Of a stretch of 64,000 nt of DNA, positions 15,076 through 59,654 are shown one piece after another. The stretch spans positions 24,193 through 88,192 of the forward strand of contig JABWCP010000001.1 of NCBI GenBank assembly GCA_013360215.1. Reading direction: 5' to 3'. The position numbers and the translations under genes are program-made. This DNA is from a bacterium. Its GTDB lineage: Bacteria; CLD3; SB21. The stretch's first letter is position 1. Each line of letters begins with the position of its first letter. The notes beneath the pieces were generated by a model, which had not been told where the DNA came from, did no database searches, and saw only the letters and a list, made by a program, of their open reading frames with translations.

Positions 15076-15091
15076 TGTGTATCATCCATAC

Positions 15092-15122
15092 AAAAAAACC
15101 CTAAAACACGTTTAGGGTTTTT
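15092..15122. terminator. Bidirectional hairpin/terminator between the response-regulator gene and the multi-HPt gene
   Basis: ccctaaa / tttaggg stem, flanked by A7 upstream and T5 downstream. It sits 17 nt before the multi-HPt start. Confidence 0.45.
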
Positions 15123-15146
15123 ACGATTTACGCGATGCTATGGCGT

Positions 15147-16001
15147 TTATTTACCGAGATATTCGTGTACTTTGGCAAGCAAGTCTTCATCATGGAACGG
15201 CTTATTGAGGAAATCCGTCGCGCCGTTGCTGATCGCAGCGTCTTTGTCTTGTGGACTGTCTTTACCGCTCAACACGACGATCGGCACCGTGGCAAAATAT
15301 CCGCCTGATTCACGCAACGCTTTCATCACTTCAACACCGGTCATATCAGGCAACATCATATCCAGAAGAATCAGACTGGGCTGCATCTCTTTAGCTTTGT
15401 TGATCGCATCTTCGCCTTTCATGGCCGACGTCAGATTGTAATTATCATTCTCCAACGCGATCTCAACCATTTTTTGAATCACGATACTGTCATCCACGAC
15501 AAGTATCTTTCGACCGCCGGCCGACGCAGAAGCGGCCGGAGCTACCGGTTTGGGCGCCGCTTTTTCTACTTTGGGTTCCGGTTTGGGTTCGACCTTAGGC
15601 GAATCCATTGAACCCAAAATGTCGGTTTCTTCTTTTTTAGGCACAGGCTTGGGTTCCGGTGCTTTTTCAATTTTCGGCTCCGGTTTCGGTTCTGCTTTAG
15701 GTTCCGGCTTCGGTTCCGCTTTCGCTTTAGGCACTTCTTCTTTGACGGCTTTCTTCGACGGCGCTTTCTCTTTCGCCGGTTTAGCCGCCGGAGCAGGAGC
15801 ACCGCCGGATATCAATTTTTCAGCAGATAGTTTTTGTAAAATTTCTTCGACCAACGTTGCATCGCGATCCAGTTTTTCTGCGATATCGGCCACATTGCGT
15901 TTACCGTCAACAGAAAACAAAACACGCCATTCAATTTTTTTCAACAGAATGGTTTCAACTTTTTCTCGTAAGTCTTTTACTCTGGAGTAAACTGCGTCCA
16001 C
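15147..16001 (-). CDS. Response regulator: N-terminal wHTH-like domain, Pro/Lys/Glu-repeat linker, C-terminal receiver (REC) domain
   Basis: C-terminal REC: KILVVDDSIVIQKMVE...LILLDMMLPDMTGVEV...TVPIVVLSGK. The linker carries AEPKPEPK tandem repeats. GTG start. Confidence 0.7.
   Translation of the reverse strand: MDAVYSRVKDLREKVETILLKKIEWRVLFSVDGKRNVADIAEKLDRDATLVEEILQKLSAEKLISGGAPAPAAKPAKEKAPSKKAVKEEVPKAKAEPKPEPKAEPKPEPKIEKAPEPKPVPKKEETDILGSMDSPKVEPKPEPKVEKAAPKPVAPAASASAGGRKILVVDDSIVIQKMVEIALENDNYNLTSAMKGEDAINKAKEMQPSLILLDMMLPDMTGVEVMKALRESGGYFATVPIVVLSGKDSPQDKDAAISNGATDFLNKPFHDEDLLAKVHEYLGK
15560..15800. repeat. Short tandem nucleotide repeat encoding (E/A/V)PKP(E) units in the response-regulator linker
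   Basis: Reiterated units such as aaaccggagccgaaa and gaaccgaaaccggag. The mirror-frame + strand ORF (GSGLGS-rich) is a translation artefact of the same repeat. Confidence 0.4.
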
Positions 16002-25436: not shown

Positions 25437-28400
25437 ATGCGACAATTACGTTTTTTTATTCTGCTGATATTTACCGCCATACCGCTTGCCTTCGCTCAGA
25501 GTGACAGCATCACAATATCCGAAGTGATGTTTAGTACAAGTAATACATTGGACTTCATTGAACTTTATAACTACAGTAAGACACAAACTATTGATCTCGC
25601 TAAATACATAATTACGGATGGTGCGGGCAATAATGACTCCGATCGGATCAGTAGTGCCGGTGAGGGCTTACTTTTATATCCGGGCCAATTTGCCATTCTC
25701 CTTGACCCCGATTACTTTTTACCGCCCAACGCTTCCGGACGTGTTTACGATATTTCCATTCCGGATACTGCACGCATCGTCACAATTGATACTAACCAAA
25801 CCGGCGGTTTTGTTCTCGGAAACGGATCGTTAAGTAATACAACCGCAGAAACAATTCACTTAATCAAGGTACAATCCGGAATTCCGCGTGACACAATAAG
25901 TCGTTATACCTATTCATTAGGTAACAACACCTCATATAGCGATGAAAAAATCACCTTAAACAATGATAACAATTCATCCAATTGGACGAATTCGATTTAC
26001 CTGAACGGTACACCGGGTGCGCCGCCGGAGACGAATCTTTCGATCAACGATCATCGCATGATCTTCACACCACCTGATCCGCTCACCGGAGCAAGCGTGA
26101 CCATCGGTGCTATCGTAACCAACAAAGCGATTACTACGAGCGATTCATTTCGTGTGCTCTTTTATCTGGACGCCGATAAAAATGGAACAGCGGATGTTTC
26201 CGAACTTCTGGATTCGGTTTCCTATAACGGGTCACTACCCCGCAATACGTCCGACACGATTTTTTTTACAACATCTTCGATAGCCTCCGGTATCAATTAT
26301 TATATAGCCCGTATCGGTTCGATTTATCCTTATGCCGATACTGTTTTATCCGATCAATCGCTACGCGATTCCGTACAAACGACTCCGGCCTATAACGTAT
26401 CATGGTCTGCTTCTTCTGTTTTTTCACCGAGTTCACCGACCACCGGTGATACCGTTACCTATGCGCGTGCGATGTACAATACAGGTATCGCCGACATCAC
26501 TCACTTTGCCGCTTATTTGTACATAGATCAAAACCATAACGGGATGGTCGAAACCGGTGAAAAGGTCGATTCGTCAAATTATAACGATATCCTGCCAAGC
26601 GGTGATTCGGTGGTCATTTATTTTACGATCCCGGACGTCCAACGCGGAAAGCTGAATCTATTATTAGACTTGCCGGCCGATTCTTTAGGTCCTGTGCCGG
26701 ACGAACAACCGGCCGATAATCGGACATCCGATTCTGCCAATATCCGTGCGGCCATGAGCTTAACCCTCACATCGGCCAGTGCGCTTAAGCCGTCGTATAA
26801 TTACATCGCCGATACCATGGCGATAAAGGCTGTCGTACACAATAACGGAAGCACAACCGCGAGCGGTTTTTCTGTGATGTTGTATCACGATGCAAACACC
26901 GACGGATTGCCCGACACGAACGAACGCGTGGATTCTGTGCGCTATACATCGTCATTGGATGCAACGGTAAGTGATTCCATCACTTTGTATTGGCTACCGA
27001 CGTCTGAAGGTAACGTCTCGCTCATCGTCAAACTCGACTCGTCCACAGTCCAACCCCTGACGGATGAAGATGGATCCGATAATACACATACGCTGAATGC
27101 ACTCATCTACCCTCGCCCGGATTCGATCACTTTTTCAGAAATCATGTTTGATCCGCTGGGCTCCGAAGATTCTAATGAATTTGTTGAATTGTACAATTTT
27201 GGCTCACACGCTGTTGATCTGCTCAATTGGCAGATCGCAGACAGCCTTGGACATGATGCGATACAAGATGCCGGAAATGGGACGGTCTTACAAGCGGGAC
27301 AATATGCCATCGTATTCGAAAATGAATACGCACTGAATACAGGTCGTTATACATCGCGTATCCCATCGTCGGCATTAGTCTTAACGATCAACGGCTCCAC
27401 CTTTGGCAGCAGTTCAAGCGGATTGGTGGGAACCTATCCGAAACAATTATTTCTGGTACGCAGTTTAGGTGATACGATCTCAACGTACCGCTATTCCCTC
27501 GACAATACCGAAGGACATTCCGATACAAAAATCAATCCCTCGGAAATCAACACGCCCGCGAATTGGGCGAACAGTCTCATCACCGATGGCACACCGGGCG
27601 CTCATGCGGAAGTCAACTTGTCACTCCTCGGTCAGCGTTTGCGATTTGCGCCTTCTGAAATTCCATCCGGTACTCAAACTGTGATATCCGTGACTGTTAA
27701 AGATTCCGGCATCGCACCGGTGAATATTTTCAAAATCGCTATGTATCATGATACTAACCGAAACGCCATTCCTGAACCGGAAGAAATCATTGATTCCCTG
27801 GTATTTTCAGGGCAATTGTATTTCGGTGACAGCGTGATATTTACGGCAAATACACCGGCGCTCTCCTATGGCGTACATTATTTTATTGCACGTATATCGC
27901 AAGGCGAGGTCTCGCCGTACGGTGATACGCTCTACTATAACGATATGCTCGCCGACAGTATAAAGACAAAACCATCCGGCGACATCGCACTGAATCGAGG
28001 ACGCCTGATATTGGGCGAAATTGCAACGCGAGGTAATTCCTTTTCGATCGGTGCGTACGCGTACAATATGGGCACGCAACCCGTTCAATCGTTTACCGTT
28101 CGATGGTATGAAGATCGCGACGGAAATTATACTACCGCACCGGAGGAACGAATAGACTCCAACACATATACCGGAAATCTTTTGCCCGGAGATTCAACCT
28201 TTTTACAGATCAACTACCCCAATGCGACCTACGGTAAACATCGAATTATGGCTGAAGCTATATCATCCTCCGTACAGCCTATTGCCGATGAAGAGCCGTC
28301 AAACAATCTACTTGTGGATTCGATTGAAGCCGGAGCACGCCCACGCGATATTCTAATCAGCGAATTTATGTATCTTGCCGTAACGGATAGTATCCCCGAG

Positions 28401-31400
28401 TGGATCGAAATCTACAATTCTTCTGCGCTCTCCATATCACTGATGAATTGGCAGCTGTACGACAAAACATCCGATGTCGTATTGACGGATCGAAGCGACA
28501 CTTTGCACGCCGGCCAATTTGGAATCATCGTCAAAGATTCTGTCGTGTTTCACAAAAAATACGGTAACAAGTTATCAGACGTTCTATATATCTATCCGCC
28601 CTCCATGCCGAGTCTTAATAATACCGGCGGCGATATTATCAAACTGAGCACACCCGCGGGACTTACCGTGGACAGTCTTAACTATCTGACATCATGGGGC
28701 GATGATGAGGGTATCAGTCTAGAGCGCAAACTAAATGATAGTGCATCGTTCAGTATGAATAACTGGACGCTTAGCAGCGACCCTTCCGGCGGTACCCCGG
28801 GTACAAAGAACACAGCTACACCACAGCTTCGCGATCTGTCCATCACTTCGCACGACATTCTCTGGACACCCGCTTATCCGACGCTAGGAGAAATTTTTCA
28901 AGTCAAAGCTACTGTACGAAATCTAGGCATTACCTCGAGCGGGGCATCCACTATTTTACTCTATGCCTACAGCGGTCATGATTCCACATTATTACAGACA
29001 ACGAATTCGCCCGCCATATTACCCGGTGATTCTTTGGTGATCGTCTCATCCCCGATCACCAACGAACCTCAAACCTATGTCGGCATTCAAATTGATTACG
29101 CGGAAGATGAACGCTTATCCAATAACTTTGCTAAACGCTTCGTACCTGCTGCCACACCAAGGCAAACGGTGGTCATCAATGAAATCATGTACAAACCCGG
29201 AACCGGACATACGGAATGGATCGAACTTTACAACCGCTCCCAAAACGCTGTGGATCTGCGTTCATGGCGTATATCCGACGGCAATGCCGACCTAACCGCA
29301 CCGGCTACTGCTAAAACTATAACCACTCAAAGTGTCATACTTCAACCGGATAGTTTTATCATCATCGCCAAAGATTCCGCTCAATTTTCATCGCAGTATG
29401 GAACACCTTTGCACGCCGTTTATCTGAGCAGTATGCCTGCACTCAATGATCCGGGTGATATGATCACAATACAAGACAGCTTAGGCGGCATTGTGGATAG
29501 TCTTGTGTATCTATCCGGTTGGGGCGGCAGTTCGGATCGTACATTGGAACGACGTTTCTATGATTCCGTTTCGTATTTAACTTCCAACTGGCTTAGCTGT
29601 GAAATCCCTATCGGCGCAACTCCGGGCCACCCCAACAGTGTCAAGCCATTGCATCATGACTTATCTGTAAAGGCATCTCCCTTGCGCGTAACGCCTTCGT
29701 ATCCACGTATCGGCGAAGCATTTACAATAACTGCACCGATATACAATCAGGGTTTAGAACCCGTGAATGATGCCTCACTGCGATGGTTGCGTATTCGCGC
29801 ACAACATGATACAGTGATTCTCTCAGACGAGATCATCGGTACGTTGAATGCCGGCGATTCATTAAAAATTTCTTATTCGGACACGGCACGCCAAATCGGT
29901 GATTCCATCGTAGCGCTTATCCTAAGTGGATCGGACGAACGTACACTCAACAATAAATCCGCAGTTCCTCTGATAACCTCCACTCGTCGTAATGCACTGG
30001 TGATCAATGAAATCATGTACGATCCCGGTTCGAACAGACCCGAATGGATCGAACTGTATAACCCGGGTGCGGATACTATTGATCTTAAAAACTGGCGCAT
30101 GGCGGATGAATCCACCATCGCAAATCCTAAAACTTTTGCTGGTACTTCCTTACGTATTCCGTCACAACATTACGTCATCATTACCAAAGATGCATCCGCA
30201 TTAGCCCTTACTTATCCGTTACTATCATCGCCCGTCGTGACCATGTCCTCGTTTCCCACGCTCAATCAAACCGGTGATTTGATTCTACTGACGGATAGTC
30301 TGAGTGTAACAGTTGACAGTGTGTTTTACGAAAACACGTGGGGCGGTGCGAACGGTTTTTCGATCGAGCGTATCAGCGCAACCGATAACGCCAATTCACC
30401 GAATAACTGGAAAACCTCTGAAGCCAATGCCGGCGCCACACCGGGGGTAATGAATAGCACAACACCGGTGGCTCTGGACCTCAGCATTCGAACGAATGAT
30501 GTATGGTTTGATCCGCCGTTTCCTTCACCGGGCCAACCCGTACAGATCCATATACGCATTCGCAATAAAGGCCTTCAAAACATCACAAACGCAGCGGTAG
30601 TGCGTGTCTATAACGATATCAATAATGATAGTATTCCTCAGATAACGGAGATCATTGATTCTACGATCGTACCGGCTTTATTATCCGGCGATTCGCTGTT
30701 TGTAACCATTCAATGGACAATCCCCGTTTCGGCATCTCGTCGTTTATCCAAAGCACTATCTATGGGATCCCGTAAAATCATTATCCAGCTTGATTTTGCA
30801 GGCGATGAACGCACTGAAAATAACCTCCTATTTACTGCGTTGCCGTTGGGTACGCCGTTTCAGTCTGTCGTGATCAATGAATTTATGTATGAGACGGATA
30901 CTTCACGCACAGAATTTATCGAACTGTATAATCCCGGTACTACCTCATGGGACTTGAAAGATTGGAAAATCGCCGATGGTAGCAGCGTCGTATCTATCAC
31001 CGACGTTTCGGTTTCATTTTTATCAGGCACCTATAAAGTGCTGGCGCCGGACAGTTCATTCTTCCGCAAATTCTCTACGACCCCGGCCTCGTCCGTAATC
31101 ATCGTGCCGGGTTTACCAAGCCTCAATAATACGGGTGACGCCATCCGTTTAGCCGATGATCTCGGTGCAACGGTGGATAGCCTGACGTATAGTAACACAT
31201 GGGGCGGCGCTAAAAATATCAGCGTCGAGCGTATCGATGCCGACGTATCATCGGATGAACCAAACAATTGGACAACGTCCTTAACGACGCAAGGACACTC
31301 AGCCGGCCTTGTCAATAGCATTGTATCGGCTGAGCCCTTTGTCAAACAATCGCTCATCATCAATGAAATCATGTTTAGCCCTATGAGCGGCGAACCGGAG

Positions 31401-32141
31401 TATATCGAACTATACAACCGCAGCGAAGCAGCCATTTCCCTGCTCAATTGGGCCATCACGGTTGGCGACGATAAAACACTTCTCGCGCAAACCGATATAT
31501 CCGTTCCTCCGCATGCATACGTCGTGATCGCCGGGACCAAAACATTTCCGGATCGTTACGATTTGGATAAGACGCAGATTATCGTTCCGGTAACCAACCT
31601 TGCCGCGTTACCGGCTAATGGTACGGCGCTGGTGTTGCAGGATTGGGTTGGCACTACGATTGACAGCTTAGCTTATACGGAACTTTGGGGTGGCGGAGAC
31701 GGTTACGCTTTGGAACGAATCCAACCGGACGCCGCATCCGATCTGATGACCTCATGGCGAACATGTGTATTCGTCGAAGGCGGCACGCCGGGAAAAATCA
31801 ACTCGGTGTACAATGGCGATAAGCCTAAAAAAATTCGCATTACCGCCGATCCGAATCCTTTTTTGACAGATGTCGCGGAGAATACCACAATCACCCTCGA
31901 AATGCCGGTAACTTATGCGCGGGTTACGATGAAAATATATGACAACCAGGGTCGTCTTATGATTACCCTGCTCAACAATCAACCGACCGGTGCGCACCGC
32001 GAAGTGATGTGGGATGGACGGGACAAAAACGGCCAACGCGTTCGTATGGGAATATATATTATTTTTATCGAGGCTATCGAAGAGTCCGGCGGATTTAATA
32101 AAACGGCTAAACAAACGATCGTTGTCGGAAAAAGATTATAA
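25437..32141 (+). CDS. Giant (2234 aa) T9SS cargo surface protein: seven lamin-tail-domain (LTD) repeats interleaved with CARDB/Ig-like domains, ending in a Por-secretion-tail sorting domain
   Basis: Seven LTD starts: ITISEVMFS, ITFSEIMFDP, ILISEFMYL, VVINEIMYKPGTGHTEWIELYN, VINEIMYDPGSNRPEWIELYNPG, VINEFMYETDTSRTEFIELYNPG and IINEIMFSPMSGEPEYIELYN, each followed by DL(x)NW. CARDB-like spacers. The C-terminus ARVTMKIYDNQGRLMITLLNNQPTGAHREVMWDGRDKNGQRVRMGIYIIFIEA matches the Por_Secre_tail consensus. Confidence 0.75.
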   Translation: MRQLRFFILLIFTAIPLAFAQSDSITISEVMFSTSNTLDFIELYNYSKTQTIDLAKYIITDGAGNNDSDRISSAGEGLLLYPGQFAILLDPDYFLPPNASGRVYDISIPDTARIVTIDTNQTGGFVLGNGSLSNTTAETIHLIKVQSGIPRDTISRYTYSLGNNTSYSDEKITLNNDNNSSNWTNSIYLNGTPGAPPETNLSINDHRMIFTPPDPLTGASVTIGAIVTNKAITTSDSFRVLFYLDADKNGTADVSELLDSVSYNGSLPRNTSDTIFFTTSSIASGINYYIARIGSIYPYADTVLSDQSLRDSVQTTPAYNVSWSASSVFSPSSPTTGDTVTYARAMYNTGIADITHFAAYLYIDQNHNGMVETGEKVDSSNYNDILPSGDSVVIYFTIPDVQRGKLNLLLDLPADSLGPVPDEQPADNRTSDSANIRAAMSLTLTSASALKPSYNYIADTMAIKAVVHNNGSTTASGFSVMLYHDANTDGLPDTNERVDSVRYTSSLDATVSDSITLYWLPTSEGNVSLIVKLDSSTVQPLTDEDGSDNTHTLNALIYPRPDSITFSEIMFDPLGSEDSNEFVELYNFGSHAVDLLNWQIADSLGHDAIQDAGNGTVLQAGQYAIVFENEYALNTGRYTSRIPSSALVLTINGSTFGSSSSGLVGTYPKQLFLVRSLGDTISTYRYSLDNTEGHSDTKINPSEINTPANWANSLITDGTPGAHAEVNLSLLGQRLRFAPSEIPSGTQTVISVTVKDSGIAPVNIFKIAMYHDTNRNAIPEPEEIIDSLVFSGQLYFGDSVIFTANTPALSYGVHYFIARISQGEVSPYGDTLYYNDMLADSIKTKPSGDIALNRGRLILGEIATRGNSFSIGAYAYNMGTQPVQSFTVRWYEDRDGNYTTAPEERIDSNTYTGNLLPGDSTFLQINYPNATYGKHRIMAEAISSSVQPIADEEPSNNLLVDSIEAGARPRDILISEFMYLAVTDSIPEWIEIYNSSALSISLMNWQLYDKTSDVVLTDRSDTLHAGQFGIIVKDSVVFHKKYGNKLSDVLYIYPPSMPSLNNTGGDIIKLSTPAGLTVDSLNYLTSWGDDEGISLERKLNDSASFSMNNWTLSSDPSGGTPGTKNTATPQLRDLSITSHDILWTPAYPTLGEIFQVKATVRNLGITSSGASTILLYAYSGHDSTLLQTTNSPAILPGDSLVIVSSPITNEPQTYVGIQIDYAEDERLSNNFAKRFVPAATPRQTVVINEIMYKPGTGHTEWIELYNRSQNAVDLRSWRISDGNADLTAPATAKTITTQSVILQPDSFIIIAKDSAQFSSQYGTPLHAVYLSSMPALNDPGDMITIQDSLGGIVDSLVYLSGWGGSSDRTLERRFYDSVSYLTSNWLSCEIPIGATPGHPNSVKPLHHDLSVKASPLRVTPSYPRIGEAFTITAPIYNQGLEPVNDASLRWLRIRAQHDTVILSDEIIGTLNAGDSLKISYSDTARQIGDSIVALILSGSDERTLNNKSAVPLITSTRRNALVINEIMYDPGSNRPEWIELYNPGADTIDLKNWRMADESTIANPKTFAGTSLRIPSQHYVIITKDASALALTYPLLSSPVVTMSSFPTLNQTGDLILLTDSLSVTVDSVFYENTWGGANGFSIERISATDNANSPNNWKTSEANAGATPGVMNSTTPVALDLSIRTNDVWFDPPFPSPGQPVQIHIRIRNKGLQNITNAAVVRVYNDINNDSIPQITEIIDSTIVPALLSGDSLFVTIQWTIPVSASRRLSKALSMGSRKIIIQLDFAGDERTENNLLFTALPLGTPFQSVVINEFMYETDTSRTEFIELYNPGTTSWDLKDWKIADGSSVVSITDVSVSFLSGTYKVLAPDSSFFRKFSTTPASSVIIVPGLPSLNNTGDAIRLADDLGATVDSLTYSNTWGGAKNISVERIDADVSSDEPNNWTTSLTTQGHSAGLVNSIVSAEPFVKQSLIINEIMFSPMSGEPEYIELYNRSEAAISLLNWAITVGDDKTLLAQTDISVPPHAYVVIAGTKTFPDRYDLDKTQIIVPVTNLAALPANGTALVLQDWVGTTIDSLAYTELWGGGDGYALERIQPDAASDLMTSWRTCVFVEGGTPGKINSVYNGDKPKKIRITADPNPFLTDVAENTTITLEMPVTYARVTMKIYDNQGRLMITLLNNQPTGAHREVMWDGRDKNGQRVRMGIYIIFIEAIEESGGFNKTAKQTIVVGKRL

Positions 32142-51004: not shown

Positions 51005-52351
51005 TTATTCTAAGTTTCGATTATTTTCGATTTCTTTTAAACCGTGTTTATCCAGAACGCCGTAAATTAAGGGTTTTTTATCCGGTGCATTATACTCTAT
51101 TTTATAAGCACTCTGTATTCGATGCGCGACCGTTTTTCCATCCACGCGGGGTGAATGATAAATTTCGGCAATGAGGTCATTGGCTTTGACGGCATCACCC
51201 ACTTTTTTCTTTATAACTATACCGGCTGTCGGGTCAATCGTATCTTCTTTTTTACTGCGACCGGCACCGATCGCAACCGACGCTAAACCGATCTGCAATG
51301 TATCCGTCGCCGTGACAAATCCGTCCGTTTGAGCATACACCGGAGTTTTGCATTCGGCTTCAGGATACGTTTCAGGCCGGTCAATATAGGATAAATTACC
51401 GCCATGTACACGCACGATTTCACGAAATTTATCAAATGCTTTGCCGTTATTCAAATTATCTTTACACCGCGCATAGGCTTCGTCATACGTCATACCGGGA
51501 TTAGCAAACATGAGCATATACGCCGTTTGCGCTAATGTCAGTTGAATAATATCCTGCGGGCCGCCGCCGCGTAAAACATCCAGCGATTCACGCACTTCCA
51601 GCCAATTGCCAATTCCCTCGCCGAGTGGTTCATCCATATTGGTAAGTAACGCCACAACCGATTTGCCGGCCGATTCACCGATAGATACCAAGTGTTGTGC
51701 CAGATTGACGGCGTCATCAAAGTGCCGCATAAAAGCGCCATTGCCCACTTTGACATCCAGTACAAGTGCGTCTATGCCTTCTGCTAGTTTCTTGCTCATA
51801 ATACTTGCCGAAATCAGCGGTATAGATTCTACGGTCGCTGTCACGTCACGCAGCGCGTATAGTTTTTTATCGGCTGGAGCAATTTCCGCCGTTTGACCGA
51901 TCATGCAAACTCCGATGGATCGCAGTACGTTTATGAATTTTTCCATCGAAAAAAAAATATCGAATCCGGTTATGGATTCAAGTTTATCCAATGTACCCCC
52001 CGTATGACCAAGACCGCGACCACTGATCATCGGCACGACAACGCCCAGCGAAGCTGCCAGTGGAGCAAGTATCAAAGAAATTTTATCGCCGACGCCGCCG
52101 GTACTGTGTTTGTCTACTTTGATACCCGGTATGGACGATAAATCAACAACCACTCCGGAATCCCGCATTGCCAAAGTCAGGTCCGTCGTTTCACGGAATG
52201 TCATTCCGTTAAAAAAAACGCTCATCAGCCATGCGGACATCTGATAATCGGGAATTTCGCCGTCGGTATACGACCGTATAAGCCACCGAATTTCATCGCC
52301 GGACAACTCCTGGCGATTTCTTTTTTTCATTATGATTTCATATGGCGACAT
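51005..52351 (-). CDS. deoA: Thymidine (pyrimidine-nucleoside) phosphorylase
   Basis: HSTGGVGDK and the glycosyl-transferase-family-3 fold. Confidence 0.9.
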   Translation of the reverse strand: MSPYEIIMKKRNRQELSGDEIRWLIRSYTDGEIPDYQMSAWLMSVFFNGMTFRETTDLTLAMRDSGVVVDLSSIPGIKVDKHSTGGVGDKISLILAPLAASLGVVVPMISGRGLGHTGGTLDKLESITGFDIFFSMEKFINVLRSIGVCMIGQTAEIAPADKKLYALRDVTATVESIPLISASIMSKKLAEGIDALVLDVKVGNGAFMRHFDDAVNLAQHLVSIGESAGKSVVALLTNMDEPLGEGIGNWLEVRESLDVLRGGGPQDIIQLTLAQTAYMLMFANPGMTYDEAYARCKDNLNNGKAFDKFREIVRVHGGNLSYIDRPETYPEAECKTPVYAQTDGFVTATDTLQIGLASVAIGAGRSKKEDTIDPTAGIVIKKKVGDAVKANDLIAEIYHSPRVDGKTVAHRIQSAYKIEYNAPDKKPLIYGVLDKHGLKEIENNRNLE

Positions 52352-53105
52352 AGTTTTTCTTTCTTAAAACAAAATGAACGCGCTCCGATGCCTCACTTCC
52401 GTCCGTAAAACCAAGATTGGCTAATTGCGCAACGCAGGTAAATGGTGATGCACGGATTATCGCATGGATTTCATCCAAAGAATAAATTCGTTGTTGATGG
52501 GTTTCATGAAACAAGGTTCCGTTTATTTCTGCTTCGATTTCGTTAAATTGTGTTCGGGAAACGCGATCATAGTAACTGCGGCGTTTGTAATGATGCGTTC
52601 GATCCAGTTCATACCTCTGATCGAAGTGATCAAGTGAGTTTTTTTCAGTACAGACATCAAAAATAAAAACACCACGGTCCGTGATACACTCAGAAACATG
52701 ATTAAAGAAATTCAGGATATCTTCAGCTTTCATCAGATAATTAACACTGTCATATAGGCAAAGCGCGGCATCGCATTCGACAGTAGGCTTGAAAGAAAGC
52801 ATATCGCCAGTAAAAAATTGCATCTTATCCGATTGAGCAACGGGTTTTTTACGTGCGGTCATGATCATGGTTTCAGACCGATCGCTGCATATCATCGTAT
52901 AAGGAAACGCGGCCATCGCTGCGGCAAAATTACCGGTTCCGCAGGCAAATTCACAGACGGTTGATATACCAGACCCGTAACGCTCGAATATTTGATGAAT
53001 AAATGACGACCATGTCCGGTAATCCACATGCTCCATCATGCCGTCATAAAAATCTGCAAGCATAGAATACGGAGGTACATTCTTTTTTTCAAGAAAAGGC
53101 TGCAT
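52338..53105 (-). CDS. Class I SAM-dependent methyltransferase
   Basis: Motif I VCEFACGTGNFA and motif II LCLYDSVNYL. Confidence 0.7.
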   Translation of the reverse strand: MQPFLEKKNVPPYSMLADFYDGMMEHVDYRTWSSFIHQIFERYGSGISTVCEFACGTGNFAAAMAAFPYTMICSDRSETMIMTARKKPVAQSDKMQFFTGDMLSFKPTVECDAALCLYDSVNYLMKAEDILNFFNHVSECITDRGVFIFDVCTEKNSLDHFDQRYELDRTHHYKRRSYYDRVSRTQFNEIEAEINGTLFHETHQQRIYSLDEIHAIIRASPFTCVAQLANLGFTDGSEASERVHFVLRKKNYVAI

Positions 53106-53751
53106 GCGCCATCACTTTCAGTGAAAATAAGTCCGGAATTACAACATCCGCTTCATTCAAATATTTTTGATCTAGGGTCGTCGTCAGTGCGATACACGCC
53201 ATCTTCGCTTTTTTGGCTGCAGTTACTCCCAAAGGTGCGTTTTCTATCACAATGCACCGTTCGGGTGATACGGAAAGCCTCGTCGCCGCTGTCGTGTAGG
53301 GCTCCGGATCAGGTTTGGTTTTCATAACGTCATCAGCCGTTATGATGACTTCAAATCGTTTTGTAAAATCCGGCCCCACTGTTTTATAAAAACGGTCCCG
53401 ATGCGCTCCGGTAACCAATCCGGTTTTCAGACCTTGTTTGCGAAACCATTCGATCAAGTCCTCAGCCCCATCGTAAAGCTTAGGTTTTGCCGTATTCAGG
53501 TATAAATTATTCTTCTTCTTTCCAATCTCCTGACCATATTTAATATCCACGCCGTGGTTCATACATAATTGTTCGGCTATTACAAAAAGGCTTTGGCCTT
53601 CGAGTAAACAAAATTCGTCCCAGTTTATGGAAACGCCGTATTCAGAAAAAACACTATTCCAAGAGCGATGGTGATCGCCAATACTATCCATGAGTACGCC
53701 GTCAAAATCAAAGAGTACGGCTGAAAATTCCTGTAAACGTAAGTTTGACAT
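53089..53751 (-). CDS. HAD-superfamily hydrolase (beta-phosphoglucomutase-like subfamily)
   Basis: LFDFDGVLMDS, LVTGAHR and ENAPLGVTAAKKA. Confidence 0.7.
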   Translation of the reverse strand: MSNLRLQEFSAVLFDFDGVLMDSIGDHHRSWNSVFSEYGVSINWDEFCLLEGQSLFVIAEQLCMNHGVDIKYGQEIGKKKNNLYLNTAKPKLYDGAEDLIEWFRKQGLKTGLVTGAHRDRFYKTVGPDFTKRFEVIITADDVMKTKPDPEPYTTAATRLSVSPERCIVIENAPLGVTAAKKAKMACIALTTTLDQKYLNEADVVIPDLFSLKVMAHAAFS

Positions 53752-54459
53752 CTATCGTTTTTTCATTCTGCGATGATATCGCATTTCTAATTCTTCCGGT
53801 GAAGCACCCAGCAAACGAAAACGAATAATCACTTCCGCCGCGATACATATGCGCTTGACGATACCGGAAGAAAAATATCGGCGCGACGAAACGATAACCG
53901 GATCTTTTATGATAATCATTCGCCCTGCCTTTTTCATTGCATCACAAAATATCACATCTTCCAACAAAGACACTTGTTTAAATCCGCCAAGCTGATGAAA
54001 TACGCTTGATCGGACAAAGATCGCATTGGTACCAACGAGATTACGCAACCAAAGTGTGCGGATCGTATTGATGAGGATACGGTACAATCGCATGAGCATA
54101 TTTTCGGGATTATATTTTTTTTGAAATCCGCCGCCGATGCATTGGGGATCGCTCAGAAATTGTTCGACGGATTTAAACGCATCCGGAGGAAGTTGGCAAT
54201 CTACATGCAAAAAGAGCAGTACCTCACCTTTAGCGGCTTGGGCTCCCCGATTAAGTTGGTTCGCTCGCCCTTTATCACCCGATACGACGGTGCACGGAAA
54301 AGATAAATTTTTCAAATCACTTACACGTTCGAGCGTTCCATCTGTACTGCCACCGTCGGAAACGATAACTTCGAATACGCCGGTCTGATGTTTCAGTTGT
54401 TCAATACAATGGGTTATCCACTGGCCTTCATTGAGGACAGGTATGATGACAGAGATCAT
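53752..54459 (-). CDS. Family 2 glycosyltransferase (resembles the TIGR04283-type rSAM/selenodomain-associated GT2s)
   Basis: SVIIPVLNE, VSDGGSTDGT, GRANQLNRGA...LLFLHVDCQLP, LLEDVIFCDAMKKAG and VSSRRY. Confidence 0.7.
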   Translation of the reverse strand: MISVIIPVLNEGQWITHCIEQLKHQTGVFEVIVSDGGSTDGTLERVSDLKNLSFPCTVVSGDKGRANQLNRGAQAAKGEVLLFLHVDCQLPPDAFKSVEQFLSDPQCIGGGFQKKYNPENMLMRLYRILINTIRTLWLRNLVGTNAIFVRSSVFHQLGGFKQVSLLEDVIFCDAMKKAGRMIIIKDPVIVSSRRYFSSGIVKRICIAAEVIIRFRLLGASPEELEMRYHRRMKKR

Positions 54460-55580
54460 CCCGGAGAATTTCCGTTTTGTTGGAGACCAAGACGTTGATT
54501 GACAGCATCCATTTGTCGCTGTTTGTATTTACTATGGCTGCCCTCGCCGATCTCATTATTCTGGTACGTCATCTGGTCCATGATCTGTATTTCGACCGGC
54601 ACAAAAATAATACGGCCAAATTCGGAAAAATCCGGTGTGTATAAAAAATCATCCACCCGTATCGGTATATCCATAACGATATTGATGGAACGATAGCTTG
54701 TGCTTGAAAATTTATTTTCTTTGGATACTTCATCCGGATCAAAACCGTGCGTATCTTTTCGTCTGAGAAATTTTGCGTACGATCTCAGATTGGGAAACAT
54801 CTCAACGAGCTCTGCAAAGGCAATCAGATTATTATGCGAACTCCCCGGAATAACATAATTAAACGGACAAATCGTGCGGCCTAAAAAATACAATACCGGC
54901 AGTATGTCTTCGAGCGTCTGAGTAATGATACGAAAGCGGATACGGTCATAGATAGCCGCCGCATGATTTTCTTTCTTGGCCATCAGTTTGGTAACCATGC
55001 TCATCTTGTCTTTATGGCTTCCGTAAAAATCAACGATATGAAATTCGTTATTTTTCATCGTCGTAACGGCATGTTCCACTTTCCGTTCGACGGCAAAATA
55101 AAGATCCGAAGCCCGCATCTGGCACCGGTGGAAAAGTTCGCGCGCATCCAGGTGGTTGATCGTATGCATGATCTTGAGGACCATACACGCATAAAATTGA
55201 TGTTTATTTTTTCGTGCGGACTGTGAAGCGAGATACAGAAGTTGTTCGATGGTGGCCGATTCCGGTCGGATTTCTTTGGGTATACGATGCGGGTATTTAC
55301 TGTCGAGATATTCGACCGCTTCGCGATGAATTTTTTCAATACGTTTGTGGTCCTGCACATTGGTAAGATCGTAGCCGTTGACTTGTAAAAAAAGCTGAAC
55401 CTGATCCGGTGTATGAAAATCTAGACGGAACCAATCAATCACCGAATCTCCGTTGAGTACCAGCCGAATGGCTTCGAGATCACTCAAACGCATATCGCTG
55501 AGATAGAGTATCTCCTGCGGAGAAAAAATATTTTTCACCGGCGGAACATACAACGGCGCTTTTTTCTTGGGATCAATCAT
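54456..55580 (-). CDS. Divergent RelA/SpoT-domain nucleotidyltransferase (small-alarmone-synthetase-like)
   Basis: Aligns with the Rel synthetase core. AIYDRIRFRII matches EIYDLLAVRII, SYRSINIV matches YQSLHTTV, PVEIQIMD matches LEVQIRT, and GSHSKYK matches AAHWAYK. ATG 55580 forms an ATGA overlap with the PHP gene. Confidence 0.5.
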   Translation of the reverse strand: MIDPKKKAPLYVPPVKNIFSPQEILYLSDMRLSDLEAIRLVLNGDSVIDWFRLDFHTPDQVQLFLQVNGYDLTNVQDHKRIEKIHREAVEYLDSKYPHRIPKEIRPESATIEQLLYLASQSARKNKHQFYACMVLKIMHTINHLDARELFHRCQMRASDLYFAVERKVEHAVTTMKNNEFHIVDFYGSHKDKMSMVTKLMAKKENHAAAIYDRIRFRIITQTLEDILPVLYFLGRTICPFNYVIPGSSHNNLIAFAELVEMFPNLRSYAKFLRRKDTHGFDPDEVSKENKFSSTSYRSINIVMDIPIRVDDFLYTPDFSEFGRIIFVPVEIQIMDQMTYQNNEIGEGSHSKYKQRQMDAVNQRLGLQQNGNSPG

Positions 55581-56428
55581 GCGTTTACTTTGCGCAAAGC
55601 TTGTGCGCGATCCTTGAGTCGCTGGACGACGGAATACGGGACACGGTACTGACCTATGAGCGGCACTTGCCCTCGCCCGTGGCAATCGGAACCGCCGCTT
55701 TCTTCGAGTCCGTATTGTACAGTAAGGCGTCGGTAATATGCGGTCGAATCGGCCGTATGTTTGGGATGAATGCACTCGATTCCGTGGATACCGGCTTTGA
55801 TCATATCATAGACATGCGTTTCTTTCATATTAAGCGTAGGATGCGCCAAAACGGCTACACCCCCGGCCTTTTCGATGAGCTCGACGGCAAAACGCGGTGA
55901 AATTTTATATTTATCCTCATAGGCTGTACCGTCAGGGCCGAGAAACCGCGCAAAAACATCGTTGATATTGTACGCCAATTTTTTGGATAACATCACATCG
56001 GCAATGTGCGGTCTGCCGATCACACCGCGACCGGCTTTCATTTCGACTTCTTCGATCGTAATCTCCATGCCTTGTTTTTGAAGACGGTCAATAATACGTA
56101 TGGCCCGGTGGCGCCGCTCATCTCGGTAAAGCTGCAGTTGCGCATCCAATGCCGCATCGGTGTGATCAAAACAATATCCCAAAACGTGAATATCGCGTCC
56201 ATCCCAAGTCGTGCTGAGTTCTATGCCGGTCAGGACTTCCACATTATGTTTATTCCCCGCTTCTGTGGCTTCATCCACGGCCTTCACCGTGTCATGATCG
56301 GTGATCGCTATACAGTTCAGGCCGATTTTGGCGGCGTACTTTACAATGGCTTCCGGCGATAATATGCCATCCGAATAATAGGAATGCATATGCAGATCGG
56401 CCCAAAGTTCGGACGTTTTTTCGATCAT
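55577..56428 (-). CDS. PHP-family phosphoesterase, TrpH/YciV (RNase AM / 3',5'-bisphosphonucleotide phosphatase)-like
   Basis: DLHMHSYYSDG, IAITDHDT, GIELSTTWDGRDIHVLGY, GGVAVLAHP and GSDCHG match TrpH-type PHP enzymes. Confidence 0.8.
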   Translation of the reverse strand: MIEKTSELWADLHMHSYYSDGILSPEAIVKYAAKIGLNCIAITDHDTVKAVDEATEAGNKHNVEVLTGIELSTTWDGRDIHVLGYCFDHTDAALDAQLQLYRDERRHRAIRIIDRLQKQGMEITIEEVEMKAGRGVIGRPHIADVMLSKKLAYNINDVFARFLGPDGTAYEDKYKISPRFAVELIEKAGGVAVLAHPTLNMKETHVYDMIKAGIHGIECIHPKHTADSTAYYRRLTVQYGLEESGGSDCHGRGQVPLIGQYRVPYSVVQRLKDRAQALRKVNA

Positions 56429-56434
56429 AAATCC

Positions 56435-57526
56435 TTAGAGTAATTCCGATAATAGCGGCGCTTGTTTTTTAAAAGCCATCCGAAGTCCGCCGAGATTGAC
56501 TTCCGGTTCGCATAAGACAAATAACCATTCTTTGCGACCGGGCACTGGCGCCATGAAAATGGTTTTCTTATTGAAATCAAGAGTGATAAAACGAAGCCCT
56601 TCGCCTTTCAGTTCCGTATCCACTTTCAGCAGATATTCCAAGCCTGGTGGAATGATCGTACTCAGAAGCGTGATATCCATACGCTCTTCTTTTTTTTCAT
56701 TAAAAAGCGACGCTCTCGAAAACCCGGCATCATCGATCACAGCTACCAGATCCACACCTTTGATTTTGATAAACTCCGCTATAGATGACTTTATTTTTTC
56801 GAGCATCTCCTGACGCGATTCTTCTTTGATCTGCGTTTTCGTCTCGGGCGAATATTCATCTTTGCGGCGCATTCCTTCCAATAAAAGACTTTGCCACCCT
56901 TTATCTATAGTCTCTTTTTCGGGATCTTCACCTTTACGAAATTCAAAACGTCCGTTTTCCCATGCCAATATTTTATAAAACGCTTCTTCGCCGATCAGCG
57001 TACCGCATTCGGCATGAACAATATTACCATCACTAAAGTATAATGTTCCCTTCTCTTCATCTTTGTTTACCACCAAGGCGGCTTTCATACGCCCGAGTAT
57101 ATTCATTTGGATAAGATCGGACAACTGAAAGTCGGAAACTTTACCGTCAAATCCTTTTTTCTCCGTCAGTGCACGGTGTATCAGCGTACGCAGCTCTTCG
57201 ATTTCAAACGGTTTTTCGATGTAGTACAACGAACCGCGATCCGTAGCTTCACGTTGAACTTCGGCGGAACCAAAGGCTGTCATAATGATAACCTTGGTTG
57301 TCGAATACGTTTCTTTGATTTTTACAAGCAGTTCCAACCCGGACATACCCGGCATTTTGATGTCGCTTACTACCAGATCCACAGGTAATTGGGAAAGAAC
57401 ATTAAGCGCCTCTTGAGCGTTATTGACACAGATCAGGTCAAAACTATCCTTGTCTTTAGATAAATTTTTGGAAATGCTCCACGTAAGGTCTTCTTCGTCG
57501 TCAACTATGAGTACTTTTTTTTGCAT
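56435..57526 (-). CDS. Response-regulator receiver protein with a DUF4388 domain and a C-terminal roadblock-like segment
   Basis: REC: KVLIVDDEED...DLVVSDIKMPGMSGLEL. The DUF4388 pattern is FQLSDLIQMNILGRMKAALVV...GTLYFSDGNIVHAECGTLIGEEAFYKILAWENGRFEF. Confidence 0.65.
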   Translation of the reverse strand: MQKKVLIVDDEEDLTWSISKNLSKDKDSFDLICVNNAQEALNVLSQLPVDLVVSDIKMPGMSGLELLVKIKETYSTTKVIIMTAFGSAEVQREATDRGSLYYIEKPFEIEELRTLIHRALTEKKGFDGKVSDFQLSDLIQMNILGRMKAALVVNKDEEKGTLYFSDGNIVHAECGTLIGEEAFYKILAWENGRFEFRKGEDPEKETIDKGWQSLLLEGMRRKDEYSPETKTQIKEESRQEMLEKIKSSIAEFIKIKGVDLVAVIDDAGFSRASLFNEKKEERMDITLLSTIIPPGLEYLLKVDTELKGEGLRFITLDFNKKTIFMAPVPGRKEWLFVLCEPEVNLGGLRMAFKKQAPLLSELL

Positions 57527-57539
57527 ATGGATTTAACGG

Positions 57540-59654
57540 TTAGATGGTTGTTGTCAATGTATGCCGGTTTTCCAATATAGATTTTGATTTTTCTGCACAA
57601 GGTATGTGCATGATGAATGTTGTACCTTTACCCGGTACACTTTCCACTTTGATTTCACCTCCGTGCTCCTGCACGATACGATACACGATCGAAAGACCTA
57701 ACCCGATACCACCGGGTTTAGTCGTAAAAAAAGGATCAAAAATGGAACGAACTTGCTCTTGAGGAATACCTTTCCCCGTATCGCTGACGCGTATTTCCGC
57801 CATAGTTACCGGTAAATCATAGTTATTCAGCGGTGTACGCTGAACGGATTGAGCAAGGATCGCGATGCGCCCTCCTTGACCGATCGCATCCATAGCGTTC
57901 ATCATAAGATTAAGCATGACTTGCGAAAATTGATTTTCATCCACCTCGATGGGCACAAGTTTTTCGTCATACGCTTCGTGTATTTCGATGTGATCCGTCT
58001 CGGCACGCGCTTTCAAAAGAGCCTTGATTTCTTGTATCAGTTCCGGCAGTGCACAGGCTTTTTTCTCCGGGCGCACGGGTTTGGCATAGGTGAAAAAAGC
58101 TTTAAGCAAATCGTTGAGCCGGTTAATCTGTTTGATAATGCGATAAACATACTCATGGCGCGGGTCATCGGGCGGCAGTTCCTTTTGAAGGGCCTGTGCG
58201 ATGGTTTTAATGCCCGCCAAAGGGTTGCGAATTTCATGCGCAATGGCACTGGTCAATGCGCCCGATGCGGCGAGACGATCCATTCGCATGATCGTCTCAT
58301 GCATGGATTTGACCAGGGAAATATCTTTGAAACTGATAATATACCCTACCATGTTGTGGTCGACGTCGTAACGCATAGTGGTCGTAAAACCTAGAAAAAG
58401 GCGTGTACCGTCTTTTTGTCGAACCTGCACCTCCGCATTGCCCGGGGCGGATTCATTTTCTACCGTCGGATGAAGCATGCGTGAGGCCTCTTCGCGACCA
58501 AAAATTGTTTCCATTTTGTGATCGAGCAATTCGTTATCGGAATATCCTAAAATGGATTTGGCGGCACGATTGACAAATAAAATGCGCCCGGAAAAATCAG
58601 CCGTGATGATACCGGCGCTGACATTGTGCAAAATACTCTCATTAAAATTTTTCAAATCCACCAATGCATGCGTCGCCTGCCGAATTTGATCCTGCAAGTT
58701 ACGATTGAAATCCGACAACTTATTAAAAAGCTGCATATTCTCCATCGCTAAGGCGATTTGACCGGACACCGTCATGAGTAATGAAAGGTCGCCGTGTTCG
58801 AAACCCATCTGTGTTTTTTTATTGATGATCATCATCACCCCCATGAGCTGACCGCGTATGTATATGGGTGTACATATCGCTGCACGCAACGGATTGGGCG
58901 TCAGTGCATAAATCGCCGCGGGTATCCTTTCATCGCGAACGGCATCATTGACGATCATCGGCTTTTCATAACGCTCGATATATTCAAAAATCGAACCGCC
59001 ATGCGGTAATAACGTCCCGATGTGTTTTTCGGAAATATGAGATGACAATGTATGAATCGCCCAGTCCGATCCTTCCCGCGTTATGAGCAGAGCAACTTCG
59101 ACGCCAAACGCGGCCGTTATTTTATCAATAATTTCCGCTAATACGATTTTCTGTTCTTTGAGCGAAATAACAATCCGCGCTATGTCCGATAGAAGTTGCA
59201 GTTCGCGGGTACGTTCTTCTAATTTACGTTTTTCGGTTTCTTTTTCAGATATCAAATTTTCCAAACGATCGTGCAGATGCTTGATGCGCAAGAGGTTGAC
59301 GACACGCGACAACAGTTCGACACGATTGTACGGTTTCGTGATAAATTCGTCCGCACCCGCCTGTATCGCGCGATTGCGCGTTACTTTATCGGACATACCG
59401 GAAGCCAGCATCACCGGAATATGCCGCGTTCGTTCGCTCTCTTTAAGCAAACGGCACACCTGAAAGCCGTCCATCGCATACGTATCGGTAGCAATCAGCG
59501 CCAAATCATAATCGAGGCTTTTTACCTTATCGAGCACATCGTGGCCGTCATGTGCATGAACCAATGCATAATCGTTGGAGACGAGAATTTCCGTCAATGC
59601 GGACGCGGAGTCCGGATGCGGGTCACAAATTACGATAGTGGCTTTTTTCTTCAT
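57540..59654 (-). CDS. Hybrid sensor: REC, GAF, PAS, HisKA and HATPase histidine kinase
   Basis: N-terminal REC (LALIATDTYAMDG), GAF and PAS segments, H-box AHEIRNPL, and the G-boxes DTGKGIP and GGIGLGLSI. Confidence 0.85.
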   Translation of the reverse strand: MKKKATIVICDPHPDSASALTEILVSNDYALVHAHDGHDVLDKVKSLDYDLALIATDTYAMDGFQVCRLLKESERTRHIPVMLASGMSDKVTRNRAIQAGADEFITKPYNRVELLSRVVNLLRIKHLHDRLENLISEKETEKRKLEERTRELQLLSDIARIVISLKEQKIVLAEIIDKITAAFGVEVALLITREGSDWAIHTLSSHISEKHIGTLLPHGGSIFEYIERYEKPMIVNDAVRDERIPAAIYALTPNPLRAAICTPIYIRGQLMGVMMIINKKTQMGFEHGDLSLLMTVSGQIALAMENMQLFNKLSDFNRNLQDQIRQATHALVDLKNFNESILHNVSAGIITADFSGRILFVNRAAKSILGYSDNELLDHKMETIFGREEASRMLHPTVENESAPGNAEVQVRQKDGTRLFLGFTTTMRYDVDHNMVGYIISFKDISLVKSMHETIMRMDRLAASGALTSAIAHEIRNPLAGIKTIAQALQKELPPDDPRHEYVYRIIKQINRLNDLLKAFFTYAKPVRPEKKACALPELIQEIKALLKARAETDHIEIHEAYDEKLVPIEVDENQFSQVMLNLMMNAMDAIGQGGRIAILAQSVQRTPLNNYDLPVTMAEIRVSDTGKGIPQEQVRSIFDPFFTTKPGGIGLGLSIVYRIVQEHGGEIKVESVPGKGTTFIMHIPCAEKSKSILENRHTLTTTI

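Follow-up and report, generated by a model that had tools for sequence, protein, structure and literature searches.

Stress signaling in bacteria centers on RelA/SpoT homolog (RSH) enzymes, and the divergent RSH branches studied recently have all been surprising, among them (p)ppApp toxins, defense toxins that pyrophosphorylate tRNA, and exported synthetases. Among the described systems that lie closest to the protein considered here are RelP and RelQ, and the synthetase (SYNTH) domain of long Rel. The gene in question occupies positions 54456 to 55580 on the minus strand of a 64,000-nucleotide stretch of bacterial DNA (contig JABWCP010000001.1 of assembly GCA_013360215.1, positions 24,193 to 88,192 of the forward strand; this whole stretch is referred to below as the window), and it encodes a 374-amino acid member of the NCBIfam family TIGR04552. 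All features of the gene and its neighbors described below are on the minus strand unless stated otherwise.

RelP and RelQ (6EWZ, 6FGX, 5DED, and 5F2V) are the best domain-level structural matches of the TIGR04552 protein, with target template modeling (TM) scores of 0.45 to 0.59 and a probability of 1.0, and counterparts of the SaRelP residues K80, S84, K88, D107, R112, Y151, E174, and H190 are all present. The TIGR04552 protein nevertheless differs from RelP and RelQ in sharing only about 16% identity, in being without a counterpart of R78, in possessing an extra N-terminal domain and insertions, and in replacing the RT of the EXQIRT motif with a hydrophobic residue and Asp. In the case of long Rel, the SYNTH domain of RelSeq (1VJ7) has a motif order and E-to-H spacing identical to those of the TIGR04552 protein, and B. 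subtilis Rel (8ACU) is the top Foldseek match of the TIGR04552 model, whereas the HD hydrolase, TGS, and ACT regions of the long RSH enzymes (Rel, RelA, and SpoT) are missing from it.

The toxin small alarmone synthetases (toxSAS) and (p)ppApp synthetases CapRel, FaRel2, FaRel, and Tas1 also have divergent RSH domains and provide a precedent for acceptor switching, as they use acceptors other than GDP or GTP, namely tRNA CCA ends and ATP. Those toxins are found in conserved two-gene modules, secretion systems, or defense islands, whereas TIGR04552 genes lie in the core chromosome without a conserved partner; assignment to a toxSAS or defense module was rejected on the absence of a conserved partner, a PADLOC match, or a plasmid copy. 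A further comparator is DsRel, a two-domain small alarmone synthetase (SAS) of Deltaproteobacteria and spirochetes in which the catalytic domain is N-terminal and the TPR region C-terminal, whose Treponema denticola representative (SAS-TPR, Tde-SAS) makes both (p)ppGpp and (p)ppApp (PMC10434055). The order is reversed in the TIGR04552 protein, whose catalytic domain is C-terminal and comes after a novel helical domain at the N terminus, with no TPR match, and an identity with DsRel was rejected on this opposite architecture. Likewise rejected was an identity with bdRel: the 2011 RSH census assigns bdRel to Acidovorax, Ralstonia, and Pelobacter, whereas the strains of Anaeromyxobacter, Haliangium, and Bdellovibrio that it covers are credited with nothing beyond Rel and, in some cases, a small alarmone hydrolase (SAH). 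The TIGR04552 family is present in other Anaeromyxobacter species, in Haliangiales, and in a Bdellovibrio strain (PMC9888234), the comparison with the census being at the level of genera or orders. Because the census lists only Rel with or without SAH where relatives of its strains carry the family, this suggests that the census did not count TIGR04552 as RSH, and the family apparently falls outside the published RSH nomenclature.

A RelA/SpoT synthetase domain in the TIGR04552 protein

Residues 178 to 366 of the protein (54483–55049) have the RSH fold, with their motifs arranged in RSH order. The Pfam model RelA_SpoT (PF04607) matched the 374-amino acid protein at E 1.8e-5 with 25.4 bits, against a gathering score of 27, and it matched 40 of 52 aligned relatives at E≤0.01, with a best E of 9.2e-8; the relative P0106 clears the Pfam cutoff with 30.3 bits over model positions 4 to 112 of 113. 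The RelA/SpoT link of many TIGR04552 members is already visible to Pfam. When a profile of the family was compared with the PDB sequences, the sole match was RelSeq (1vj7), on the same motifs, at E 0.012 with the full-length profile and E 0.0023 with a profile of the C-terminal domain. A canonical Rel SYNTH alignment was built from the RelSeq segments printed by HMMER together with homologs, and hhalign aligned the C-terminal domain of the family with it over 118 columns at E 1.8e-5 and a probability of 78%. An AlphaFold2 model made from the 52-sequence alignment had a predicted local distance difference test score (pLDDT) of 87 and a predicted TM score (pTM) of 0.86, and every one of its 50 best Foldseek matches in the PDB was a Rel, RelP, RelQ, or SpoT structure, the top one at E 3.4e-5. 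In the BFVD, the named high-probability matches were RelA/SpoT, YjbM, and Tas1, with Tas1-like and RelA/SpoT phage proteins among the weak matches. All five RSH motifs are present in RSH order, with the E-to-H spacing of 19 residues found in RelSeq, and the likeness to Rel exceeds chance. The alignment to the Rel synthetase core that had been proposed by eye in a sequence-only reading of this DNA is borne out by these comparisons: the Pfam, PDB profile, hhalign (the profile–profile check suggested there), and Foldseek results gave RelA/SpoT synthetases only, and neither the profiles nor the structure placed the best matches in a different nucleotidyltransferase superfamily.

The residue mapping was pooled from the HMMER profile alignments and hhalign, and the residue roles were taken from the SaRelP and RelSeq structures (PMC5794853; PMC7983052). 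In the Syn1-like motif YGSHKDKMSMVTKLMAKK (54972–55025), which was located by profile alignments and conservation, K190, S194, and K198 correspond to the residues that contact the ATP phosphates, K80, S84, and K88 in SaRelP and K243, S247, and K251 in RelSeq. The Syn2-like motif IYDRIRFRIIT (54921–54953) contains D212, the counterpart of the Mg2+ ligand D107 in SaRelP and D264 in RelSeq, and R217, the counterpart of the adenine-stacking Arg R112 in SaRelP and R269 in RelSeq. In the Syn3- or G-loop-like motif NKFSSTSYRSIN (54681–54716), hhalign equates N289, Y296, and N300 with RelSeq N306, Y308, and H312; Y296 is thereby the counterpart of the G-loop Tyr that stacks the acceptor base in RelSeq (Y308) and of SaRelP Y151, and this position is Tyr or Phe in 237 of 237 sequences. 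An alternative HMMER register that placed the family DxPVRVD on the Rel MPGRFKD was dropped in favor of the hhalign register because the sister subfamily TIGR04562 has YRSLH exactly at this point. The Syn4-like motif PVEIQIMD (54576–54599) provides E330, equivalent to the catalytic Glu and Mg2+ ligand E174 in SaRelP and E323 in RelSeq, and Q332, equivalent to Q325. Finally, in the Syn5-like motif HSKYKQRQ (54513–54536), H349 matches the ribose-contacting His of SaRelP (H190), and the YK is retained as Y352 and K353. The Syn2-, Syn4-, and Syn5-like motifs were placed by profile alignments.

The profile alignments give the same three motif equivalences that the sequence-only reading had proposed, namely that the Asp of the D-x-x-x-x-R loop is kept (D212 to R217), that the Glu of EVQIRT is kept while RT is replaced (E330 and Q332 retained, with M334 and D335 in place of RT), and that the AHWAYK box survives as SHSKYK (H349, Y352, and K353). 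Its broader claim that the residues expected for pyrophosphotransfer are kept stands for the Mg2+ ligands, the Lys/Ser/Lys set, R217, and H349, but not for the first adenine-stacking Arg, which is lost. Among 238 family sequences, K190 is conserved in 226, D212 in 227, R217 in 218, E330 in 216, Q332 in 213, and H349 in 211. The catalytic set is 100% conserved in 121 TIGR04552-like and 116 TIGR04562-like sequences, with D212 and E330 invariant in these 237.

The minus-strand interval 54456–55580 corresponds to exactly one gene, as judged from its open reading frame (ORF) and translation, its NCBIfam match, and public gene calls, which on 20 public contigs give an identical 374-amino acid product. 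Its start codon ATG (55580–55578) shares an ATGA with the TGA of the upstream PHP-family phosphoesterase gene, and its stop codon TGA (54458–54456) shares an ATGA with the ATG of the downstream glycosyltransferase gene. A longer ORF with a GTG start, extending to 55775, was rejected as the gene; it runs over the PHP gene in another frame. All of the motif strings quoted previously (AAAIYDRIRFRIIT with IYDRIRFRII, PVEIQIMD with VEIQIMD, and GSHSKYKQRQ with SHSKYK) are found in the translation.

The protein is a clear member of TIGR04552, scoring 316.6 bits (cutoff 125) over residues 33 to 364, and it also scores 308.2 bits against the sister model TIGR04562 (cutoff 140). In a word-indexed search, 412 relatives (90% clustering) came up, and those with a name are labeled only 'TIGR04552 family protein'. 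An exhaustive search with the profile gave 1,082 clusters (50% identity) at E≤1e-3, 820 of them at E≤1e-10. At least 570 species genomes contain a relative in a scan of one genome per species. Among the matches listed, the nearest relatives, at 56 to 67% identity, are from metagenome-assembled genomes (MAGs) labeled Bacteroidota, and a second tier at about 40% identity is from Myxococcota. The suggestion that the protein might found a new subfamily was therefore superseded by the existing catalog: TIGR04552, with about 1,080 clusters at 50% identity, is already named, no new family is discovered here, and the gene in the window is one ordinary member. For this gene alone, the result is modest. 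The family as a whole is a widespread and architecturally distinct RSH synthetase variant with an intact catalytic core, and it behaves as part of the core genome in Myxococcota, Bdellovibrio, Vampirovibrio, Cyanobacteria, and a clade of MAGs labeled Bacteroidota. Three of the lineages in which it occurs, Myxococcota, Bdellovibrio, and Vampirovibrio, are unrelated predatory lineages; it is also found in Cyanobacteria and in the Bacteroidota-labeled MAG clade.

Departures from canonical enzymes and the sister subfamily TIGR04562

The EXQIRT motif is not intact in the family, with R327 of RelSeq replaced by Met, Val, Ile, or Leu (M334 in the window protein) and T328 replaced by Asp; all 237 sequences, drawn from both subfamilies, have this Asp (D335). 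RelSeq H312 is replaced by N300, and A335 of RelSeq is replaced by an invariant Asn (N342). Position 189, beside the site of the lost R241 counterpart, is Arg or His, and R215 is specific to the TIGR04552-like subfamily; further invariant basic residues, in addition to R215, are R308, R355, R363, and K202. Between the β3 region and the G-loop Tyr, residues 238 to 288 (54717–54869) comprise the loop CPFNYVIPGSSHNNL, of the form PFNYVIPGxSHNN with P239, N241, P245, and N250 invariant, followed by a helical insertion of approximately 36 residues (253–288), as delineated by hhalign and the secondary structure of the AlphaFold2 model; in the hhalign alignment, about 40 residues ahead of the G-loop Tyr form an insertion relative to Rel. 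The β4–β5 connection (309–323) is also longer than that of Rel, RelP, or RelQ, with approximately 12 more residues in this turn than in RelP and RelQ.

The AlphaFold2 models project an N-terminal helical domain of seven helices (residues 1–177; 55050–55580) ahead of the SYNTH domain, in which G44, S46, W50, D77, R80, K136, H139, and H143 are invariant. When residues 1 to 180 were modeled alone (pLDDT 80), Foldseek found no PDB match, the best E value being 1.4, and the possibility that this domain is a degenerate HD hydrolase or pseudohydrolase was rejected, there being no RSH hydrolase among the PDB matches. No HD, TGS, or ACT Pfam domain was found in the 374-amino acid protein, which stops 8 residues past the SYNTH domain, and a scan of longer relatives for fused domains found no additional Pfam domains. 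The term 'small' alarmone synthetase that had been applied to the protein is consequently not apt: it is not single-domain, having an extra N-terminal domain of about 175 residues and two insertions in the catalytic domain.

The sister subfamily TIGR04562, found in Vampirovibrio chlorellavorus, Melainabacteria, and Cyanobacteria, also bears the NCBI name 'TIGR04552 family protein', and it connects the window protein to the canonical enzymes. Both subfamilies share the two-domain architecture, the length, the catalytic set, and G44, S46, K136, and H139, and both carry the hallmark EFQIxD, in which D335 is invariant. The two differ by a strict swap: TIGR04562 proteins (n = 116) have the canonical DLxGxR with G215, the canonical YRSLH, R304, and a His-rich 188/189 position, whereas TIGR04552-like proteins (n = 121) pair R215 with D304, and their residue 188 is small. 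From this sequence pattern, we infer that an Arg needed near the ATP site may have moved between neighboring strands across the two branches. A precomputed Pfam RelA_SpoT (PF04607) match exists for most TIGR04562 proteins, compared with a minority of the branch to which the window protein belongs.

A tblastn search found a homolog in a record named 'Microcystis phage MaAM05' (28% identity over 88% of the query, E 8e-26), which scores on TIGR04562. This homolog reads DLVGVR, YRSLH, and EIQMLD, combining canonical Syn2 and Syn3 motifs with the Syn4 motif of the family in one protein, which fixes the register and is an independent tie of the family to RSH. With respect to its origin, the homolog (L088:5872-7089, where L088 is 117543-130607 of the record) is 93% identical to a Vampirovibrio chlorellavorus protein, and the record (MW495066.1, 273,876 bp) includes glyS, secDF, mtgA, and gatD. 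It looks like a piece of the genome of a predatory bacterium filed as a phage. This sole phage match was accordingly set aside as a mislabeled bacterial record that provides no evidence of phage origin.

Probable activity and competing explanations

The account that we favor, with moderate confidence in it as a whole, is that the TIGR04552 protein is an RSH-type Mg2+/ATP pyrophosphokinase whose acceptor or control is unlike that of the canonical GDP/GTP enzymes. It is a cytoplasmic two-domain protein in which residues 178 to 366 form a highly divergent RSH synthetase domain, and this domain would transfer the β,γ-pyrophosphate of ATP to the 3'-OH of a ribose-bearing acceptor, as in RelP, RelQ, and Rel. 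On the pattern of conserved residues, the enzyme is probably active and uses ATP to pyrophosphorylate a 3'-OH. That the acceptor or the regulation differs from the GDP/GTP enzymes is suggested more weakly, by the concentration of changes on the acceptor side (the insertion before Y296, N300, the hydrophobic 334 with D335, N342, and the extra basic residues) and by the addition of a new domain. In the lineage of the window, the gene is cotranscribed with a two-component system and with a set comprising the PHP phosphoesterase, an HAD phosphatase, and a nucleoside phosphorylase, and this gene string suggests signal-controlled nucleotide metabolism in a context that is lineage-specific. If active, the family would represent either an overlooked source of alarmone where development depends on (p)ppGpp, as in the myxobacteria, or a maker of some other product.

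Several points weigh against an active pyrophosphokinase of this kind. The PF04607 score falls 1.6 bits short of the Pfam cutoff, the hhalign probability is no higher than 78%, and the Foldseek target TM scores are modest, the top value of 0.59 being that of RelQ. The first adenine-stacking Arg (R241 in RelSeq, R78 in SaRelP) is replaced by Ser, Gly, or Asn at position 188, with S188 in the window protein, a change that may affect ATP binding. D212, R215, R217, E330, and Q332 have been lost from a small subclade, comprising the P0227 cluster, P0176, and P0289, which may be noncatalytic. The neighboring genes vary by lineage, and therefore the context says little about the substrate. Our literature search found no published assay for any TIGR04552 member.

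The literature that does name TIGR04552 does not address function or mention RelA/SpoT. In a Bdellovibrio evolution experiment, a TIGR04552 gene acquired an indel (PMC9888234). In Myxococcus xanthus, the family member is MXAN_4858, which lies near the gliding-motility G1 cluster and behaves like a weak motility gene in a 2026 transposon screen. This motility-like developmental phenotype means that a genetic handle on the family exists.

An alternative is that the protein is an ordinary (p)ppGpp synthetase, a second, housekeeping source of alarmone beside long Rel that uses GDP or GTP as acceptor. The catalytic and donor-site residues (the first adenine-stacking Arg excepted), the G-loop Tyr, and N289 (RelSeq N306) are all kept, and both YRSLH and DLxGxR are of canonical form in the sister subfamily. 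In Polyangia, moreover, the gene is next to yicC and gmk, a neighborhood that in E. coli holds spoT. The Tde-SAS enzyme is also divergent and still makes (p)ppGpp (PMC10434055). It is, however, the acceptor side that has changed in TIGR04552, through the insertion, the replacement of H312 by Asn, of R327 by a hydrophobic residue, and of T328 by Asp, and N342; in addition, the 2011 census, with other strains of the same genera or orders, seemingly did not count the family as an alarmone synthetase. We regard an ordinary synthetase as unlikely.

A more ambitious extension of the pyrophosphokinase account, which we consider doubtful, is that TIGR04552 and TIGR04562 are pyrophosphokinases of the RSH fold that form an ancient branch of their own and do not use GDP or GTP as acceptor. 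Pyrophosphorylation could instead be of another nucleotide, which would yield a new second messenger, or of the 3' end of an RNA. The PHP 3'-phosphoesterase in the window would then be the opposing hydrolase, and both enzymes would be under the control of the REC-GAF-PAS kinase and DUF4388 regulator encoded upstream, the whole constituting an unrecognized signaling or RNA-end-marking pathway enriched in the predatory lineages Myxococcota, Bdellovibrio, and Vampirovibrio.

The loss of one adenine-stacking Arg and the altered EXQIRT motif are also consistent with a pseudoenzyme, an RSH fold that binds ATP or alarmone as a sensor or scaffold and carries out no transfer, and so are the minor subclade without catalytic residues and the large extra N-terminal domain, which could mediate protein interactions. 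Set against this, the metal ligands, the Lys/Ser/Lys set, R217, and H349 are near-invariant in approximately 240 sequences of about 40% mean identity that span two subfamilies, the pattern expected from selection on catalysis, which leaves the pseudoenzyme an improbable explanation. More improbable again is a toxSAS-like toxin that would pyrophosphorylate the 3' ends of tRNA or other RNA, or deplete ATP, and that would be held in check by the PHP protein or by the N-terminal domain. The ATGA overlap with the PHP gene, the position of the PHP protein in the 3',5'-bisphosphate phosphatase/RNase AM group, and the invariant R215, R308, R355, R363, and K202, which could bind RNA, are all compatible with a toxin, and CapRel offers a precedent for a regulatory domain fused to the enzyme. 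There is, however, no family-wide two-gene module, as adjacency of the PHP gene is limited to 10 MAG loci and the gene stands alone elsewhere, and the chromosomal neighbors are ordinary, without a PADLOC match, plasmid copies, or a genuine phage match. RSH synthetases belong to a wider polymerase-β-like nucleotidyltransferase fold class, and the idea that the protein is a nucleotidyltransferase of that class, performing nucleotidyl rather than pyrophosphoryl transfer, draws on the weak sequence scores to Rel but is extremely improbable, given that the significant profile and structure matches are RSH enzymes without exception and include no other nucleotidyltransferase, and that the five RSH motifs occur in RSH order with an E-to-H spacing of 19.

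Genomic context of the TIGR04552 gene

In the window, the TIGR04552 gene sits in a tightly packed, same-strand string of genes with overlaps, in the order kinase, regulator, PHP, TIGR04552, glycosyltransferase family 2 (GT2), HAD, methyltransferase, and phosphorylase. At the head of the string is a hybrid REC-GAF-PAS histidine kinase (57540–59654), upstream of which are a terminator-like site (59732–59709) and a promoter-like site (59701–59672), and it is followed by a response regulator with REC and DUF4388/PatA_N domains (56435–57526); both were assigned with Pfam. The PHP-family phosphoesterase (55577–56428; Pfam PHP) overlaps the TIGR04552 gene through the shared ATGA, by which the two are translationally coupled. 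In NCBIfam, the models for 3',5'-nucleoside bisphosphate phosphatase and RNase RNM fit it best, though neither reaches its cutoff, and its PDB relatives are 3e0f, 7ug9, and 2yb1, of the 3',5'-bisphosphate phosphatase/RNase AM group. Downstream of the TIGR04552 gene is the GT2 glycosyltransferase (53752–54459), which passed the NCBIfam model TIGR04283 with 200 bits against a cutoff of 182; the label of that model is 'arsenosugar biosynthesis glycosyltransferase'. The remaining members, all assigned with Pfam and NCBIfam, are the HAD hydrolase (53089–53751), an S-adenosylmethionine-dependent methyltransferase (52338–53105), and a pyrimidine-nucleoside phosphorylase (51005–52351). The best NCBIfam model for the HAD hydrolase is NF053653, a BT2127-type inorganic diphosphatase, at 141 bits against a cutoff of 245. 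A diphosphatase-like HAD protein beside a putative pyrophosphokinase would be a notable pairing, though an unproven one.

The order of this block is kept in 10 of 10 related MAG loci (L001 to L010), with the PHP gene adjacent in all 10 and the GT2 gene absent in 3. This conservation is partly plain synteny, because unrelated flanking genes are conserved as well. The PHP gene is not near the homolog in any of 70 Myxococcota loci, for the high-GC members of which the ORFs came from a caller filtered on third-codon-position GC (GC3), and its adjacency is confined to a single clade, in the 10 MAG loci. In Polyangia (for example, L059:7100-8497), the genes lying directly 3' on the same strand are DUF507, yicC, gmk, and those for a phosphorylase of the PNP family and a PfkB kinase. 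Nucleotide- or RNA-processing genes, yicC being an endoribonuclease, are thus seen in both the Polyangia and the window contexts. In Anaeromyxobacter, the gene is 3' of a gene for a giant TPR protein and one for a zinc-ribbon, TonB-C-like protein, and it is a solitary gene in Vampirovibrio and in the other Myxococcota. Across the lineages compared, no family-wide gene partner was found.

A PADLOC scan gave no match, a plasmid search found no copies, and no genuine phage match was obtained. The window is ordinary chromosome of even GC that includes lepA, ggt, dsbD, and polA, and an Rfam search over it returned no matches. Elsewhere in the window, the plus-strand interval 25437–32141 encodes a 2,234-amino acid protein with seven lamin-tail domains, a CARDB domain, and a C-terminal FlgD_ig-like domain, probably a large protein that is secreted or sits on the cell surface. 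A minus-strand ORF of 1,181 amino acids (11530–15075), for which Hpt domains are the sole Pfam match, falls within a 6-kb region (10001–16000) that has a strongly negative AT skew of −0.13 to −0.18.

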